64,000 nucleotides of DNA from Dehalococcoidia bacterium (GTDB lineage Bacteria > Chloroflexota > Dehalococcoidia > Lucifugimonadales > Australimonadaceae), in the NCBI GenBank assembly GCA_965220225.1, contig OZ244813.1, positions 2,826,570 to 2,890,569 on the forward strand, read 5' to 3'. This document shows, one piece after another, positions 2,862 through 44,254 of this stretch (position 1 is the stretch's first letter; each line of letters starts with the position of its first letter). A program made the translations under genes and the position numbers. The notes below the pieces were generated by a model, which worked only from the letters and a program-made list of their open reading frames with translations, was not told where the DNA came from and did no database searches.

Positions 2862-3710
2862 ATGGGTAACTCGGATACGTATTTCGTCCACCTGAGCGAT
2901 ACGCACATCCTGGCCCACGAAGACGAACGACTCTACGGAAACGACACCACCGCGAATTTCAGGGCGGTCATAGATCACTTGGAGACTGAGCAGATAGAAC
3001 CTTCTTTCGTCCTCATCACCGGAGACCTCACCGACCACGGCGAATGGCCCAGCTACCGCAGGCTTCGCGGCCTCGTCCGGGAAACCGAACTGCGGCTCGG
3101 CGTTCCGGTGCTTCTCGTGCTCGGCAACCACGACCGCCGCTCGGCATTCCGCCAGGCGATACTCGGCGACGCCGAGGCTACCGACGCGGACGAGTACTAC
3201 TACGCCACGACGATCAACGGCCTCCGCATCATCGTCCTCGATTCAACCATCTCAGGACGGGACGACGGCGAGATCGGGCCGCGCCAGCTCGAATGGCTGG
3301 AGGATCAGTTCGCCTTCGGCCCGGTAGGGCAGCCGACAGTGATCGCCCTGCACCATCCCCCTCACCTTGCCGCCAACACCCATCTCGATGGCTTCGCCCT
3401 GGAGGACCGCGAACGTCTGGAACGCGTGATCGCCCGCCACAACGTGCTGGCGGTCCTGAGCGGGCACACGCATCTCTCCTCGCACGCCCGCTTGGGGAAC
3501 GCGGCGTCGCTCTCGGCGCCGTCCACCGCGTATCTGGCGAACCCCGCTCCGGGCCGCGATTTCTGCAGGACATCGGGCATCGGTTTCAACATCGTGAGCC
3601 TGAGATCAGGGAAGATCACCTCGCACCCGGTCATACTGCCGGCCCCGTCAGCATTGTTGCAGTACGTCCCACCGTCCATCGATTCCGAGCTTCTGGCGGC
3701 GATCGCCTAG
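2862..3710 (+). CDS. Metallophosphoesterase (CpdA/Icc-like)
   Basis: DTH, GDLTD, GNHD, HHPP and GHTH calcineurin-like motifs. Confidence 0.88.
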   Translation: MGNSDTYFVHLSDTHILAHEDERLYGNDTTANFRAVIDHLETEQIEPSFVLITGDLTDHGEWPSYRRLRGLVRETELRLGVPVLLVLGNHDRRSAFRQAILGDAEATDADEYYYATTINGLRIIVLDSTISGRDDGEIGPRQLEWLEDQFAFGPVGQPTVIALHHPPHLAANTHLDGFALEDRERLERVIARHNVLAVLSGHTHLSSHARLGNAASLSAPSTAYLANPAPGRDFCRTSGIGFNIVSLRSGKITSHPVILPAPSALLQYVPPSIDSELLAAIA

Positions 3711-3716
3711 TACCAT

Positions 3717-4463
3717 ATGGAAACCCTGACGCAGACGAGACAGATCGACATCCCCGGCGTGCACAACATGCGCGACACCGGCGGCTACCCCGCAGCCGGC
3801 GGCTGTACGACGCGCTGGGGCACACTCTTCCGCTCCGCACGCCTGCACGCGTTGGGTCCGTCGAGCATGCAGATGCTGGTCGACATGGGCATCCGCACGG
3901 TCGTGGACCTTCGCGGCGAGGGCGAGATCGCCAGAGCGCCCGACACCTGCGCCGATTGGCCGGGCATCGCCTACAAGCACATCCCGCTCACTCCTGCCCA
4001 CATCAGGACGAACGGCGACCGCCCTGCCAACCTCGAAGCGCAGAACGAACGCTACCTTGAGGACTCGTCAGAGCAGATAGCGATGGTGCTGCGGGTGCTG
4101 GCCCGGTCCAACGCGTTTCCGGCGATCGTCCACTGCACCGCGGGCAAGGACCGTACCGGGATCATCACCGCCCTCCTGCTGGCGCTCGTTGGAGTCCCCG
4201 ACAACGTCATCGCTGACGACTATCTCCTCAGCCTGCACGGCGCTGCTCCTGTCCTGGAGGCGCTGCGGGTGGAGGGCGCCGCGAGCGGCTGGGACCTCGA
4301 CCACCTCGAGCGGATGCTCGAATGCCGCCCGGAGGTGATAACGCACACGCTGGACGTGCTGCGGCGGCGCCACGGAGGCGTGGAGCGCTACCTCTCGCAG
4401 GCGGGAGTATGGCTCGCTGACCTGCAGACCCTGCGCGCCGCGCTCCTCGAGCCTGCCCGGTAG
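3717..4463 (+). CDS. Tyrosine-protein phosphatase (Y_phosphatase3/PtpB-like)
   Basis: NMRDTGG, VVDLR, HCTAGKDRTG P-loop and DYLLS. Confidence 0.9.
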   Translation: METLTQTRQIDIPGVHNMRDTGGYPAAGGCTTRWGTLFRSARLHALGPSSMQMLVDMGIRTVVDLRGEGEIARAPDTCADWPGIAYKHIPLTPAHIRTNGDRPANLEAQNERYLEDSSEQIAMVLRVLARSNAFPAIVHCTAGKDRTGIITALLLALVGVPDNVIADDYLLSLHGAAPVLEALRVEGAASGWDLDHLERMLECRPEVITHTLDVLRRRHGGVERYLSQAGVWLADLQTLRAALLEPAR

Positions 4464-40948: not shown

Positions 40949-41244
40949 GTCATTTCGAGCGAAGCCGAGAAATCTCTCGGGGCACCCCGCTCGTGGTGAG
41001 CCTGTCGAACCATCCTGCGCAGGCAGGGACCTCGCATCTCACCTCTCCTGAGGGAGGGTTAGGGTGAGGGCCCTCCGGGGTGGTGTGGTGAAGGGCTTGT
41101 CATTTCGAGCGAAGCCGAGAAATCTCTCGGGGCTCTGCCCGCTCATGGTGAGCCTGTCGAACCACCGTCATTCCCGCACCGGCGGGAATCCAGAGTGACC
41201 GGGCAGGTCACGCGGTGGGGTGGTGCCTGGTCCCCTCTCCCTTG
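40949..41244. repeat. Mosaic cluster of REP-like palindromes (families A, B, C, D)
   Basis: GTCATTTCGAGCGAAGCCGAGAAATCT x2, CGCTC(A/G)TGGTGAGCCTGTCGAACCA x2, one dRS3-like copy and family A. Confidence 0.8.
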
Positions 41245-41261
41245 GGGAATTACTAACAATG

Positions 41262-41438
41262 CTAGCCAACCTCTGCTTCCCGCGCTATCAGCATTGCATC
41301 GGCCATCATGTACGCTACCGCAGCATAGCCTACGCGAGTCGCCTCTTCTGTCACAACCTTAGTGTGCGGGTTACTTGCCATCAATCCCGCTAACGCTTGT
41401 CCCGCGAACCAGTCCCGTAGGCTTATGTTGTCCGGCAT
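41262..41438 (-). CDS. Small phage-type hypothetical protein (58 aa, MPDNISLRDWFAGQALAGL...AYMMADAMLIARE)
   Basis: Translated by hand; GGAG RBS; TAATG coupling; resembles the phage 'LRDYFAA..AM..AY..ADAML.AR' family; stop codon lies inside the left TIR. Confidence 0.7.
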   Translation of the reverse strand: MPDNISLRDWFAGQALAGLMASNPHTKVVTEEATRVGYAAVAYMMADAMLIAREAEVG

Positions 41439-41581
41439 TAGTTGCTCCCTTTGTCTTTCTTTTCCTTCTTCTGATACTTGTATCCGCCAGGAGGTGGTGC
41501 GCGGAACTGCATCACGACTTCCGCGATTTCTTCCGCTGTGTAGCCCTTCATATCCTTTGATGGCTTATTGTCCTTCGCCAC
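41438..41581 (-). CDS. Small basic hypothetical protein (47 aa, MAKDNKPSKDMKGYTAEEIAEVVMQF...)
   Basis: GGAGG RBS and GTG start just downstream of the transposase. Confidence 0.55.
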   Translation of the reverse strand: MAKDNKPSKDMKGYTAEEIAEVVMQFRAPPPGGYKYQKKEKKDKGSN

Positions 41582-41604
41582 TGTCCACCTCCCGCTTATC
41601 GAGT

Positions 41605-42558
41605 CTATTCTACTACATTTTGACTTACCAAGTCTTGCCAGCGCAGACGCTTCCCGACAATACCATCGGCCATAACGTCCAACTGTTGAGCCGTGTCCAA
41701 CGGGCGTTGATTGTGACGCCCTGCGAACTCGTTCACATATCTTTGCAAGTGCTTACCGCTCATCTGGTGGTAGGTTCCGTGATACCCACGCTTCAGCATC
41801 GCCCAATGGCTTTCAATGCCGTTGGTGTGCGCCGCTTCATTCACGAACTGCGAAACACCATGCTTCACAATCTTGTGCTCTTGTGGAATGTTCCGGTAGC
41901 CGGAATGTTCATCCGTGTAGACGATTGCATTGTCCGCTACCTGCTCCTCCACAAAGCCTTGCAAGGTTTCCGTCTTGGTGTCAGGTACGACGCGCAAGAC
42001 AACTTTGTTCATTTCACGCCCTTTCGCGCCCATAACCACAACCTTGCCGACTATGCCCGTACCCTTTCGGAGTTTCTTGTTAGCATGCTTGTTCCTTTCC
42101 AAGCCACCGATAAAGGTTTCGTCTACCTCGACCTCACCAGAGAGCTTGTCCATCCCCGCGTTCCACGCTTCCCTGATGCGGTGAGCCATGTGCCAAGCCG
42201 CCTTTTGGGATATCCCCAAGTCACGGTGCAACTTCATGCTGGACACACCCTTAAGGTTCGTAGCGTACAGGTAGAACGCCACCGCCCACTTACTAAGCGG
42301 GATGTTGGAATCGGCAAGAACCGAACCAGTCCGCACAGAGAAATGCTTGCGGCAGTCCCTGCACCTAAATGGCATAGGCTTGCGATTCGCAACCTCACGA
42401 GCATTACCAACCACGCCACAATGCGGGCAAGCAATCCCGTTAGGCCAACGACGCGCAATGAACCACTCTTCCGCTTTGCGCTCGTCAGCAAAGTAGGCAA
42501 TCGCTTCGGTAAGCGAGATACCCTTCCGTTCAGACCTGCCTGGTGCCTTCTTAGTCAT
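41605..42558 (-). CDS. IS1595-family DDE transposase
   Basis: Zn ribbon CPHCG...CRDC, HTH, VEVDETFIGG, YTDEHSGY and HTNGIESHWAMLKR...KHLQRYVNEF..RHN. Confidence 0.95.
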   Translation of the reverse strand: MTKKAPGRSERKGISLTEAIAYFADERKAEEWFIARRWPNGIACPHCGVVGNAREVANRKPMPFRCRDCRKHFSVRTGSVLADSNIPLSKWAVAFYLYATNLKGVSSMKLHRDLGISQKAAWHMAHRIREAWNAGMDKLSGEVEVDETFIGGLERNKHANKKLRKGTGIVGKVVVMGAKGREMNKVVLRVVPDTKTETLQGFVEEQVADNAIVYTDEHSGYRNIPQEHKIVKHGVSQFVNEAAHTNGIESHWAMLKRGYHGTYHQMSGKHLQRYVNEFAGRHNQRPLDTAQQLDVMADGIVGKRLRWQDLVSQNVVE

Positions 42559-42598
42559 ACTTCACATCCTCTTCAAACTAGAATATTGAACTGTGCGA

Positions 42599-42627
42599 AT
42601 CATAACATAAACACTTCCATTTGTCAA
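42599..42627 (-). promoter_or_regulatory. Near-consensus sigma70 promoter for the transposase
   Basis: Minus strand TTGACA-N17-TATGAT with TG extension. Confidence 0.7.
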
Positions 42628-42726
42628 GCGACAACGCGCTCGGATTTACGCCAATTACGTGCATTGCTGGAGGCGGGATTAGTTCAATATCCCTTGTTGA
42701 AAGGCGTGTTCCCGCCTCCAGCAAAC

Positions 42727-42755
42727 TTGACTCCGATATTCGATTGTACTACCAT
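42727..42755 (+). promoter_or_regulatory. Promoter of cargo cassette 1
   Basis: TTGACT-N17-TACCAT; spacer contains TATTCGATTGT. Confidence 0.6.
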
Positions 42756-42760
42756 CATTC

Positions 42761-42853
42761 TGCTACAAGTCCGCTTACCCCTGTGAGTCACCAGGCGGGA
42801 GCGTTGGGCTACCCATGCCCTCCTTGTCAGGCTCGCAGTGCGGACTTGTAGCA
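42761..42853 (+). ncRNA. Structured leader RNA (putative)
   Basis: Perfect 14-bp stem TGCTACAAGTCCGC/GCGGACTTGTAGCA with inner CTGTGAGTC/GGCTCGCAG. Confidence 0.5.
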
Positions 42854-42887
42854 AAGCACCAAGCTCTTGCCGCAAGGAGGGTTCCAC

Positions 42888-43499
42888 ATGCGTTATCTGT
42901 TACTGGTCGTCGTTGTTGCGGGCCTAGTAGCGTGCGCTTCACCGACGCCTACCCCTACGCCAACGGCAACTCCTAGACCTACACCTACTCCAACACCTAC
43001 TGCGACGCCTATTCCAACCGCAACACCTACGCCTACCCCTGAACCAACACCCACACCAACGGCGACGCCTACACCTACCCTGATTCCGACACCTACGTCC
43101 ACTCCATTACCTACGGCAACACCTACACCTATCCACTGGTACAGTCCGCAAGAAATCACGGAGGTCTACCAGACTAATCGTGCTCGTGCTCATATCCTGT
43201 TTGAAACCGGAACCGTCCATATTCAAGGCGAAGTATCCGAATTCCACACAAATCAACTTGGCCTAATCTACCTCGTCAAGCGGCGTGCGCCAGCAAGTGA
43301 TTTCTCATTCCTTACCGAAACAGACGCACAACGCGCCGCTAAGGATTGGAAGGTCATTAGAGCGAAGTTGTCCATCGAACAAGTAGCCGCAATGAACATT
43401 GGCGACCCTATCCGCTTGCGCTGTGATAGGCTTGAGCCTGATGAATACGTAGGGACAGGTGCGGAACTGATTTGCGCTAACCCTGTCCTGACACCATGA
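42888..43499 (+). CDS. Lipoprotein with PT-repeat linker and probable OB-fold (tRNA_anti-like) domain
   Basis: AAGGAGG RBS, lipobox LVAC, (PT)n linker, 'EITEVYQTN...VHIQGEV' and 'IGDPIRLRC' pattern. Confidence 0.7.
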
Positions 43500-43510
43500 G
43501 GCTTGCGCGT

Positions 43511-43633
43511 GGAGAGGTGCCGGAGTGGTTGAACGGGGCCGACTCCAAATCGGTTAGGGGCTTGGAAGTCTGACATTCTGTGTTTGTATTTCCTTTCAGT
43601 CCCTCGCGGGTTCGAATCCCGTCCTCTCCTCCA
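43511..43633 (+). tRNA. Atypical tRNA: anticodon CCA (Trp) on a Ser-like class II body, 51-nt variable arm, encoded CCA end
   Basis: Acceptor GGAGAGG/CCTCTCC; D arm CCGGAGTGGTTGAACGG; anticodon stem GCCGA/TCGGT with loop CTCCAAA; T arm GCGGG-TTCGAAT-CCCGT; U73-CCA. Confidence 0.8.
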
Positions 43634-43665
43634 GCCCCTCCTCACGCGAGCGCGTAGTCTTTGAT

Positions 43666-43695
43666 TTGACTCTATTCGATTGTTAATGCTAACGT
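43666..43695 (+). promoter_or_regulatory. Promoter of cargo cassette 2
   Basis: TTGACT-N18-TAACGT with TG extension; spacer again contains TATTCGATTGT. Confidence 0.5.
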
Positions 43696-43755
43696 CCTTA
43701 GTGACAAGTCCGAACCGTGTTGCGGGGCGGGCTTGTACTCATTTAAGGAGGTTCT

Positions 43756-43881
43756 ATGTTCGTAATGTTCTTTCGGTTCCCTGTGCCCGTTGTCCGTCGA
43801 TTCCGCGTACCGGAACCACCTCGCTCATTGGGGCTAGTTGCCGCCTACGAACGAGCAGGGTATGATTCGGACGCGGGCTAG
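43756..43881 (+). CDS. Putative 41-aa peptide (MFVMFFRFPVPVVRRFRVPEPPRSLGLVAAYERAGYDSDAG)
   Basis: Strong AAGGAGG RBS, partly paired within the upstream hairpin. Confidence 0.5.
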   Translation: MFVMFFRFPVPVVRRFRVPEPPRSLGLVAAYERAGYDSDAG

Positions 43882-43916
43882 TCATGGCTAGCCCGTAGAC
43901 GGCGGGGTAGTTCTCC

Positions 43917-44008
43917 GTGGCAGTGTTGCCAGTGTGGTTAACTGGACGAGGATTCAAACCCTTTGAACGACTCAGTGCGTGGCGGTTCGATTCCGCCTCT
44001 GCCCGCCA
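43917..44008 (+). tRNA. Degenerate tRNA-Sec-like RNA, anticodon UCA
   Basis: Long D stem CCAGT/ACTGG; TTCAAA loop; T arm GGCGG-TTCGATT-CCGCC; G73-CCA; acceptor and anticodon stems imperfect. Confidence 0.55.
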
Positions 44009-44057
44009 GCGTGGACTACCCCGCCGTCACCTTTGGCTAGCATTGTTAGTAATCCCC

Positions 44058-44170
44058 CTCCCTTGAGGGGAGAGGGCTAGGGAGAGGGTGAACCGGCGGT
44101 GTAGGGTGCCTGGTCTAGGGGCATCCCTCGTGGGTGCCCTTGCCCCGCTCATGGTGAGCCTGTCGAACCA
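44058..44170. repeat. REP-like cluster, right part (families A, E, C)
   Basis: CTCCCTTGAGGGGAGAGGGCTAGGGAGAGGG, TAGGGGCATCCCTCGTGGGTGCCCT and CGCTCATGGTGAGCCTGTCGAACCA. Confidence 0.75.
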
Positions 44171-44254
44171 CCCTCGTCGTTCCAGCGCAGGTAGGGACCT
44201 CGCAGCCCTGCCGCGTGGTGTTAGGCCTCAACCAGGCGCGCCCGGCGCCCGTTG

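Follow-up and report, generated by a model that had tools for sequence, protein, structure and literature searches.

tRNA-like passengers of an IS1595-family transposon in a Dehalococcoidia bacterium and of related transposons in several phyla

Can a small transposon carry tRNA genes as cargo, and might such genes act in translation? This question is raised by a stretch of 64,000 nucleotides from a Dehalococcoidia bacterium (contig OZ244813.1, positions 2,826,570 to 2,890,569 of the forward strand; hereafter the window), in which an IS1595-family transposon, here named element A, carries a lipoprotein gene, small open reading frames (ORFs) and two tRNA-like sequences, tRNA-like 1 and tRNA-like 2. 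An initial annotation of this DNA had placed both tRNA-likes inside the terminal inverted repeats of the element instead of in an attachment site, and this is indeed where they lie. In the literature, which was searched mainly by abstracts, no defined insertion sequence with tRNA genes among its passengers came up. The present analyses show that irregular tRNA genes are enriched and recurring passengers of the transposase clade to which element A belongs, across several phyla. For tRNA-like 1 we favor the reading that it is expressed, can be charged by seryl-tRNA synthetase (SerRS) and would act as a mobile missense-suppressor tRNA like the allo-tRNAs, and we assign to this reading a rough probability of 0.45.

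tRNA-like 1 is an intact serine-type tRNA with the anticodon CCA

The Rfam tRNA family RF00005 matched tRNA-like 1 at positions 43511-43630 with 50.4 bits (gathering score 29, E-value 4e-09), including a 49-nt variable region, and a tRNA covariance model of our own, built from 40 host tRNAs and named R1, scored the RNA up to its 3' end with 53.5 bits. The anticodon CCA and the encoded CCA end, which had been read from the sequence earlier, were confirmed; the latter is located at 43631-43633, and all 40 aligned host tRNAs encode their CCA ends likewise. The RNA has the long variable arm and the tRNA-Ser acceptor stem that characterize a class II tRNA-Ser. Among the four aligned host tRNA-Ser genes it is closest to tRNA-Ser(GGA), with 82-92% identity over two aligned parts. 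The acceptor stems of the two are identical, the D arms differ in two D-loop bases and in nothing else, a single C to T change in the T stem yields a G-U pair, and the anticodon-stem pairs 27:43 and 28:42 are altered on both sides with pairing being kept. Of the 21 pairs of the cloverleaf, 20 are standard, the exception being a G-A pair that is usual in class II D stems.

Three features depart from the host tRNA-Ser. The anticodon is CCA versus GGA, and it is presented in a loop, CUCCAAA, that is the same as the loop of the host tRNA-Trp. The discriminator base at 43630 is a U, as compared to G73 in the host tRNA-Ser. Lastly, the variable arm (43556-43604) has kept its base, and a 36-nt segment takes the place of the 4-nt CGAA loop; the extended arm folds into one long helix (z-score −3.07, equaled by 2 of 200 shuffles). 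No further copy of this insertion was found in the genome, the short CGAA form, which is that of an ordinary tRNA-Ser, was present in contigs of two other sequencing runs, and the nearest natural tRNA-Ser across 31 genomes of the order had identities of 85% and 91% over the two halves.

The location of tRNA-like 1 suggests how it might be produced. It begins 11 nt past the stop codon of the lipoprotein gene with no promoter in between, and it would be co-transcribed with the lipoprotein mRNA from the promoter-like site P1 (Table 1). RNase P and 3' trimming would then release it from the co-transcript, SerRS would charge it with serine at an efficiency lowered by U73, and the charged tRNA would decode UGG as serine at a low level. 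Charging with serine is probable because what SerRS recognizes in a tRNA is its acceptor stem and long variable arm and not its anticodon. According to excerpts of two papers on which we draw here and below, SerRS ignores the anticodon and depends on the length of the variable arm, to which G73 adds as an identity element (PMC7609411), and in E. coli serine is inserted by tRNAs of serine identity that have non-serine anticodons (PMC5389517).

Related transposons repeatedly carry irregular tRNA genes

Relatives of the element A transposase were collected by scanning one genome per species, which gave at least 587 sequences, and the loci of the best 80 (54-64% identity) were analyzed. By their assembly labels these loci belong mostly to Dehalococcoidia or Chloroflexota, and also to Acidobacteriota, Binatia, Thermodesulfobacteriota, Alpha- and Gammaproteobacteria and Poribacteria. 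Paired repeats of the GGGAATTATATAC type were present in 65 of the 80 loci, and an exact 8-bp target duplication in 53. The elements thus delimited measure between 1448 and 5156 bp (median 3054 bp), which implies that passengers are the rule in this clade; it routinely carries 1-3 kb of passenger DNA.

Across the 80 loci, R1 gave 21 matches at E-values below 0.05. Where a repeat pair was present (65 loci), 15 matches were located inside the elements (202,349 bp) versus 3 in the flanks (351,864 bp), which corresponds to an 8.7-fold higher density inside (binomial p-value = 6e-05, or 1.5e-04 when the duplicate copy L066 is left out). This count omits the 15 loci without a repeat pair, which add three matches, in L024 and L040. 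The proposal of the initial annotation had depended on whether related elements ever carry tRNA-like cargo, and this was answered by 10 distinct elements in the 65 loci, by L024 and L040, for each of which one repeat end was found, and by element B, another transposon of the host genome that is described below. Altogether, at least 14 elements have tRNA genes among their passengers. A scan for the transposase in metagenomes yielded 10 loci with up to 57% identity (61% over one fragment of 104 residues), none of which contained a tRNA-like match.

Eight of the passenger tRNAs, including tRNA-like 1, are intact, with 0-1 non-standard pairs and full D and anticodon arms. The tRNA of L094 (3518-3605, minus strand) has a serine-type body inside the element, G73, a CCA end and the anticodon UAU, and it scored 59.8 bits in Rfam. 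In L069, L071 and L024, bodies with a short variable arm are combined with GCU, an anticodon that in bacteria is normally found on the long-arm tRNA-Ser. A short-arm body with the anticodon UGA is present in L052, and two further intact passengers have anticodon loops of 6 or 9 nt. In four of these tRNAs (that of L069, the first one of L024 and the two of L071; GCU in three of them, a 6-nt loop in the fourth), all 84 pair cells are standard and 14 of the 21 pairs differ on both sides. Adjoining the tRNA of L094 we noticed a second, miniature tRNA-like with an encoded CCA (3656-3723).

A different picture is given by 11 of the 19 in-element RNAs, which are degenerate or miniature with 3-6 pairs broken or missing. 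These RNAs bring in the main rival explanation, which is that both tRNA-likes of element A are non-functional hitchhikers, captured by accident from a flanking tRNA gene and subsequently decaying. On this view, transposition in the clade would take along adjacent DNA, insertions would frequently occur next to tRNA genes, and in tRNA-like 1 the anticodon CCA, U73 and the inserted variable-arm segment would be early steps of decay. In line with this, the passenger scores form a continuum from 79 down to 22 bits, tRNA-like 2 does not fold better than its shuffles, L066 is located 19 bp from a canonical tRNA-Pro (79.2 bits) that lies just outside its repeat, and the presence of the RNA differs between close sister elements (L070 versus L083, and L080 versus L082). 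Moreover, on a quick IQ-TREE tree of the transposases the tRNA label showed 13 changes as compared to a shuffled mean of 13.8. The label is thus scattered, which fits frequent gain and loss and hence a fast turnover of passengers, not a long-kept function. However, the three unusual changes in tRNA-like 1 are accompanied by zero broken stems, and its insertion lengthens the variable-arm helix. The intact passengers also mismatch body and anticodon in a manner unlike standard tRNA sets, which capture from a host does not predict; the three flank matches, by contrast, scored 78-79 bits and were called by ARAGORN as Pro(GGG), Arg(CCT) and Phe(GAA). Finally, a pattern consisting of a serine-type D loop, the CUCCAAA loop and the T loop was found in none of 401 genomes of the class, this pattern being narrow and having a gap range that excludes tRNA-like 1 itself. 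Accidental capture and decay would explain the degenerate passengers and their fast turnover, but not the mismatched intact ones, and we consider it somewhat unlikely as an account of element A.

The degenerate passengers and the scattered label nonetheless weigh against our preferred reading of tRNA-like 1 as a serine-charged suppressor, and the same applies to several other observations. With its U73, tRNA-like 1 lacks the G73 of tRNA-Ser, and TrpRS might recognize its CCA anticodon. ARAGORN called no tRNA in the window and rejected both tRNA-likes; in the case of tRNA-like 1 this is probably due to the 49-nt variable region, and we retained both because covariance models score them. Neither element A nor its cargo has a close relative in the collections searched, the best transposase matches being 64% identical in genomes and 57% in metagenomes, and a blastn search of 84 loci with tRNA-likes 1 and 2, the RNA of element B and the leaders described below returned no homologues. 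In addition, many transposon-linked variants of allo-tRNA(UAU) were inactive in E. coli, as stated in the excerpts of PMC5389517.

The positions and shapes of the passengers allow yet another explanation, namely that the tRNA-likes are processing or stability signals in cis, with cuts by RNase P and RNase Z setting the ends of passenger mRNAs or shielding the ends of the element from read-through, and would have no part in decoding. RNase P needs the acceptor and T-arm portion of a tRNA. Three miniature forms (L076, L082 and L065) matched the tmRNA model only at its 5' and 3' ends, that is in the acceptor and T arm, with 27-34.5 bits. In seven elements (element A, L024, L052, L068, L082, L083 and L094) a tRNA-like is located 30-190 bp inside the transposase-upstream end on the opposite strand, and in element A the 11-nt gap behind the lipoprotein gene has no promoter and a site scan found no intrinsic terminator within the element. 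Although acceptor stem and T arm would suffice for such a role, tRNA-like 1 and seven other passengers retain the D and anticodon arms, and in element B the RNA precedes the lipoprotein promoter and does not follow an ORF. A role in cis is, in our view, quite improbable. The three miniature forms, which all stem from Acidobacteriota, are 65-75 nt long and by eye have G3-U70, the identity mark of alanine.

As for the protein-coding passengers, a Pfam scan of the ORFs of at least 100 aa (n = 86) found 13 N6_N4_Mtase and 9 HNH proteins, next to several restriction endonuclease families, SocA_Panacea, RhuM and M78 peptidase; ORFs below 100 aa and the duplicate locus L066 were excluded from this census, which is based on longest-ORF calls, not gene predictions. 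The other cargo of the clade thus consists mostly of restriction-modification and conflict genes, and element A itself borders a region with a methylase-Mrr fusion. Together with the loop that tRNA-like 1 has in common with the host tRNA-Trp, this would suit the idea that the tRNA-likes are decoys or spares against anticodon-loop nucleases, as is supposed for phage tRNAs. Since the anticodons of the relatives are diverse, and no tRNA-cutting toxin gene was seen in element A or its immediate neighbors, we regard decoys as highly improbable.

Comparison with known carriers of tRNA genes

Members of the IS1595 family with passenger genes are known, and their ISfinder subgroups bear a plus sign, such as ISPna2+ and ISNwi1+. 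Element A has the transposase family, the terminal repeats, the 8-bp duplication and the extra internal genes in common with these passenger elements; for tRNA cargo such as that of element A and its relatives, the literature searched gave no counterpart among insertion sequences. Phages, plasmids and integrative elements likewise bring tRNA genes onto mobile DNA. These carriers are large, and their tRNAs mostly match the codon use of the host, whereas the carrier described here is a 2.8-kb transposon and its clade holds intact tRNAs with mismatched body and anticodon.

The closest parallel is found in the allo-tRNAs. As reported in the excerpts, allo-tRNAs and irregular tRNA polycistrons of Acidobacteria are located near transposon-related or toxin-antitoxin genes, and UAU is the anticodon of the commonest allo-tRNA group (Mukai et al. 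2017, PMC5389517). The passengers of the present clade resemble them in combining serine identity or irregular bodies with non-matching anticodons, and L094 even shares the UAU. However, allo-tRNAs are defined by a 12-bp acceptor branch of the 8/4 or 9/3 type, and this is found neither in tRNA-like 1, with its 7/5 split between acceptor and T stem, nor in the RNA of element B (9/4 or 10/4). Also, as far as the excerpts go, the link of allo-tRNAs to mobile DNA is a loose association, whereas the genes reported here are inside a transposon with repeats and a target duplication.

A wider reading would be that this IS1595 clade serves as a vehicle of identity-swapped tRNAs among Chloroflexota, Acidobacteriota, Thermodesulfobacteriota and Binatota, which would render mistranslation or codon reassignment transposable and which, in element A, would couple it to a lipoprotein via P1 and the leader. 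The swaps on which this reading builds are serine-type bodies with CCA (Trp) or UAU (Ile) and short-arm bodies with GCU (Ser). We consider it unlikely that the clade as a whole works in this way. The locus is of interest in either case because the link between anticodon and amino acid is broken in few natural tRNAs, the biology of which is unsettled. A transposon with known ends, from a clade that has been sampled across phyla, represents a concrete, clonable unit with which the expression and charging of odd tRNAs, and their benefit to the element or the host, can be addressed. For tRNA engineering, it is furthermore of practical interest that a tRNA can stay intact with a variable arm of about 50 nt. 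Should the RNAs be inert, the clade would still stand out by how readily it takes up passenger DNA.

tRNA-like 2 has probably decayed or does not decode

For tRNA-like 2, the initial annotation had claimed a tRNA-like gene with the anticodon UCA and an encoded CCA end. A tRNA-like match was obtained, albeit below the gathering level, and the UCA and the CCA end appeared in one alignment each. The best match within the tRNA clan was to the tRNA-Sec family RF01852 (43919-44003, 34.9 bits, E-value 1.8e-04), which falls short of the gathering score of 47 needed for membership in this family, whose further marks are a 13-bp acceptor/T domain and the anticodon UCA, and with RF00005 neither the gathering score nor a full cloverleaf was reached. 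The RF01852 alignment has the acceptor stem GGCAGUG/CUCUGCC with a U-U mismatch, the D arm CCAGU-GUGGUUA-ACUGG, and a 4-bp anticodon stem with the loop AUUCAAA, from which the anticodon UCA is read. In the R1 alignment (43905-44008, 25.9 bits) the acceptor stem is GGGUAGU/UCUGCCC, followed by G and CCA, the D arm is deleted, the CCAGU hairpin becomes the anticodon arm, and the variable region measures 30 nt. Because the two alignments disagree, the UCA anticodon and the encoded CCA are each valid in one reading only. A hybrid reading would resemble the E-loop tRNAs, in which according to the excerpts an additional loop separates the acceptor stem from the D stem (PMC5389517, PMC7609411), and this is a likeness only.

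On its own, the core of tRNA-like 2 has no folding advantage over shuffles (z-score −0.38), and the value of −4.38 that was obtained with the flanks is due to the 24-nt inverted repeat (43898-43921 and 44005-44028). Its T arm is identical over 17 nt to that of the host tRNA-Cys, which is the best host match by a small margin (78.5 versus 71.5). The genome contains tRNA-like 2 only once, and a tRNA-Sec of the host itself is encoded at another locus. Taken together, the alignments and folds make it most likely that tRNA-like 2 is a relative that has decayed or does not decode. We also considered a Y-RNA-like RNA and rejected it, as no Rfam match was obtained and the acceptor stem, instead of the anticodon side, is where the long stem stacks. 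The same was the case for a retron, since no reverse transcriptase was seen by eye, and for UGA read-through in the genes of the element, where inspection by eye gave no sensible ORF extension.

A structured leader precedes the lipoprotein gene

The passengers of element A are, by the promoter-like sites and ORFs predicted here, two small transcription units that are directed away from the transposase gene. The first of these starts with a leader RNA that folds with a z-score of −5.87 and has an outer stem of 14 bp. By nhmmer, homologues of this leader were found in element B and in L025, L032, L022, L021 and L018, where they precede lipoprotein or signal-peptide genes in or beside the elements. 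The pairing of the outer stem is, by eye, preserved through two-sided changes across the homologues. Every leader has an internal block that is a perfect complement of 8-10 nt to the ribosome-binding site of its own gene. Four covarying versions of block and ribosome-binding site were observed (CCUCCUUG/CAAGGAGG, CCUCCCUUGG/CCAAGGGAGG, CCCCCUUG/CAAGGGGG and CCCCCUUU/AAAGGGGG), and in cross-version combinations the pairing falls mostly to 4-7 nt. The RNAalifold consensus is the helix between block and ribosome-binding site, with two-sided changes at 3 of its 9 pairs. A T-box leader was tried and rejected, as no Rfam family matched at E-values up to 10. Since no Rfam family accounts for it, the leader looks like an undescribed translational control element that, in the modeled fold, is able to mask the ribosome-binding site in front of the lipoprotein ORF.

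The initial annotation had listed a lipoprotein and three small ORFs (58, 47 and 41 aa) as cargo. All four are present, and family support among the small ORFs was obtained only for the one of 58 aa. The lipoprotein itself had no Pfam match, and one homologue of its C-terminal domain was found, with 85% identity. A language-model feature score of 0.91 connects it to clusters of PF12869 (tRNA_anti-like OB fold), which is a lead only, the name of this family being structural and the lipoprotein being predicted to be exported. When the cargo DNA (42560-44057) was used to search 401 genomes of the class, no cargo was found among the matches listed beyond the Pro/Thr linker repeat (query 378-572).

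The second unit comprises, as predicted, a small ORF and the degenerate tRNA-like RNA within a long stem. Its shortened copy of the P1 block was read as a promoter by eye and was not listed by the promoter scan, and the 41-aa ORF had no relatives in searches of Pfam and phage families.

Table 1. Positions of the features of element A in the window, and of leader copies and transposons elsewhere.
Feature	Position	Strand	Remarks
Left target site duplication	41237-41244	.	CTCCCTTG, 8 bp, read by eye; same as 44058-44065
Element A	41245-44057		2813 bp, IS1595 family, bounded by inverted repeats and target duplication
Left terminal inverted repeat	41245-41269	+	25 bp, begins GGGAATTACTAACAATGCTAGCCAA; by eye and repeat finder
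58-aa ORF	41262-41438	-	start codon overlaps stop of 47-aa ORF; phrog_2201 (1.1e-12), a phage family with no assigned function
47-aa lysine-rich ORF	41438-41581	-	just downstream of transposase gene; without family match
IS1595-family transposase	41605-42558	-	317 aa, intact; PF12762 (2.5e-40), profile positions 1-153 of 153
Transposase promoter	42599-42627	-	TTGACA-17-TATGAT, 11/12 consensus, TG ahead of second hexamer
Perfect 15-bp inverted repeat, 31-nt loop	42664-42724	.	between the divergent transposase and cargo promoters; repeat finder
Promoter-like site P1	42727-42755	+	cargo operon; TTGACT-17-TACCAT, 9/12; aligns with matching block of element B
Structured leader RNA	42759-42890	+	132 nt; outer stem and internal CCCUCCUUG block complementary to ribosome-binding site CAAGGAGGG
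Lipoprotein ORF	42888-43499	+	signal peptide ending in Cys, Pro/Thr linker, C-terminal domain of ~118 aa
tRNA-like 1	43511-43633	+	class II serine-type tRNA, intact, anticodon CCA, U73, encoded CCA; Rfam and R1
Shortened P1-block copy with hairpin	43664-43755	+	TTGACTC..ATTCGATTGT; hairpin pairs with ribosome-binding site of 41-aa ORF, z-score −6.13
41-aa ORF	43756-43881	+	strong AAGGAGG site ahead
Promoter-like site	43838-43866	+	TTGCCG-17-TATGAT, 9/12; ends 39 nt upstream of tRNA-like 2
tRNA-like 2	43898-44028	+	irregular or degenerate core (43905/43919 to 44003/44008) between 24-nt inverted-repeat arms; Rfam, R1, repeat finder
Right terminal inverted repeat	44033-44057	-	reverse complement matches left repeat at 24/25 positions
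Right target site duplication	44058-44065	.	CTCCCTTG, read by eye
Leader copy, element B	L013:499-642		
Leader copy	L025:5969-6087	-	
Leader copy	L032:4542-4659	-	
Leader copy	L022:5188-5316		
Leader copy	L021:5698-5841	-	
Leader copy	L018:8176-8299		
Miniature tRNA-like	L076:3765-3835		
Miniature tRNA-like	L082:3700-3769	-	
Miniature tRNA-like	L065:4981-5055	-	
Element B, first copy (L013)	G000:C1:1725181-1727957		2777 bp
Element B, second copy (L014)	G000:C1:2219568-2222344		identical to first copy, distinct target duplication
Element C (L095)	G000:C1:337549-340014		2466 bp, target duplication ATACGTAT

Transposase, ends and insertion site of element A

The bounded element with its 25-bp repeats (one mismatch) and exact 8-bp duplication, the intact IS1595-family transposase and the near-consensus transposase promoter had all been noted in the initial annotation, and they were recovered here by eye and by repeat finder, by protein families and by the hexamers listed in Table 1, respectively. 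In addition to PF12762, the transposase has an N-terminal zinc ribbon (PF12760, 9.3e-09, residues 25-72), and it scored 182.6 bits against NCBIfam NF033547, for which the cut-off is 75. It is 58% identical to the transposase of element B, and D146, D216, N246, E249 and K256, among them candidates for the acidic residues of the DDE triad, are invariant between these two transposases of the genome. By transposase domain, zinc ribbon, terminal repeats and 8-bp duplication, element A is a member of the IS1595 family. The inverted repeat between the divergent promoters has no second copy in the genome.

Element A is a recent, single-copy insertion, one full copy being present in the genome, which consists of a single contig of 2,938,702 bp. 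Two genomes of the same genus lack the element; on the left, synteny with them (90-94% identity) extends to position ~40940 and is lost there, and the right flank is found elsewhere. Empty-site alleles, which the initial annotation had suggested looking for, were not found in these genomes, the only matches to the element being to the Pro/Thr linker repeat and to two stretches of ~90 bp from its right end. Read joints that bypass element A (e.g. from 41242 to 44066 with AGA in between) were considered as empty sites and rejected, as they fit other copies of the repeat at the target site. An exact scan of metagenome contigs with the element A repeat gave no match.

The misassembly that had been raised earlier as a possible artifact is not indicated. 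A Logan contig of 2897 nt from run X1 spans 41190-44086 with zero differences, which speaks against misassembly, yet this evidence is not independent because X1 is probably the source sample. The left junction (41202-41430) is furthermore covered by a 229-nt contig of run X6, which has another organism label and belongs to another study. Sponge and marine metagenome runs with small word shares were rejected as a clue to the habitat since, where examined, they covered only flank repeats and an ordinary tRNA-Ser.

The left neighbors of element A are housekeeping genes (EPSP synthase, M50 peptidase and an RNase T-type exonuclease), and the right neighbors are variable, among them an AAA_25 protein and the methylase-Mrr fusion. 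By eye, the target of the insertion is the top of a 9-bp hairpin (CCCTCTCCC-TTGAG-GGGAGAGGG, 41233-41244 with 44058-44076). This hairpin belongs to an abundant repeat family of the genome that is also found on both flanks of the element (direct repeats 41138-41169 and 44144-44175).

Other IS1595 elements and odd tRNAs of the host genome

The genome contains seven IS1595 transposase genes. Element B is present in two identical copies with distinct target duplications. Its cargo consists of a leader homologous to that of element A, an unrelated lipoprotein domain and an RNA of 92-94 nt, and on the transposase tree it clusters with L025 and L032, which likewise carry the leader-lipoprotein module. 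The RNA scored 42.1 bits with the tRNA-Sec model, below the 47 of that family, and has no UCA anticodon. By itself it folds into a clean cloverleaf (z-score −2.86), in which the acceptor stem has 10 bp and the T stem 4 bp (Rfam aligns them as 9/4), the variable arm measures 8 bp and the anticodon arm is irregular, and ARAGORN calls it tRNA-Ile(GAU). In element B, the ATG closest to the ribosome-binding site is out of frame, and the in-frame codon at the usual spacing is ATC. This codon would be read by the GAU anticodon; the match may be fortuitous, and a frameshift or an error of assembly would account for the ATC equally well.

Element C carries a DNA methylase gene and a 230-aa ORF, which may be the matching nuclease, and it gave no RNA match. 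Several long tRNAs called by ARAGORN in the genome (Asp 96 nt, Arg 96 nt, Arg 84 nt and Trp 79 nt), as well as an 88-nt Met in L094, are without the T-loop consensus and seem to be spurious calls. The 95-nt second tRNA-Leu(CAA) of the genome (G000:C1:2267902-2267996) has a good cloverleaf and, unlike the 40 aligned host tRNAs, no encoded CCA; it may be foreign.

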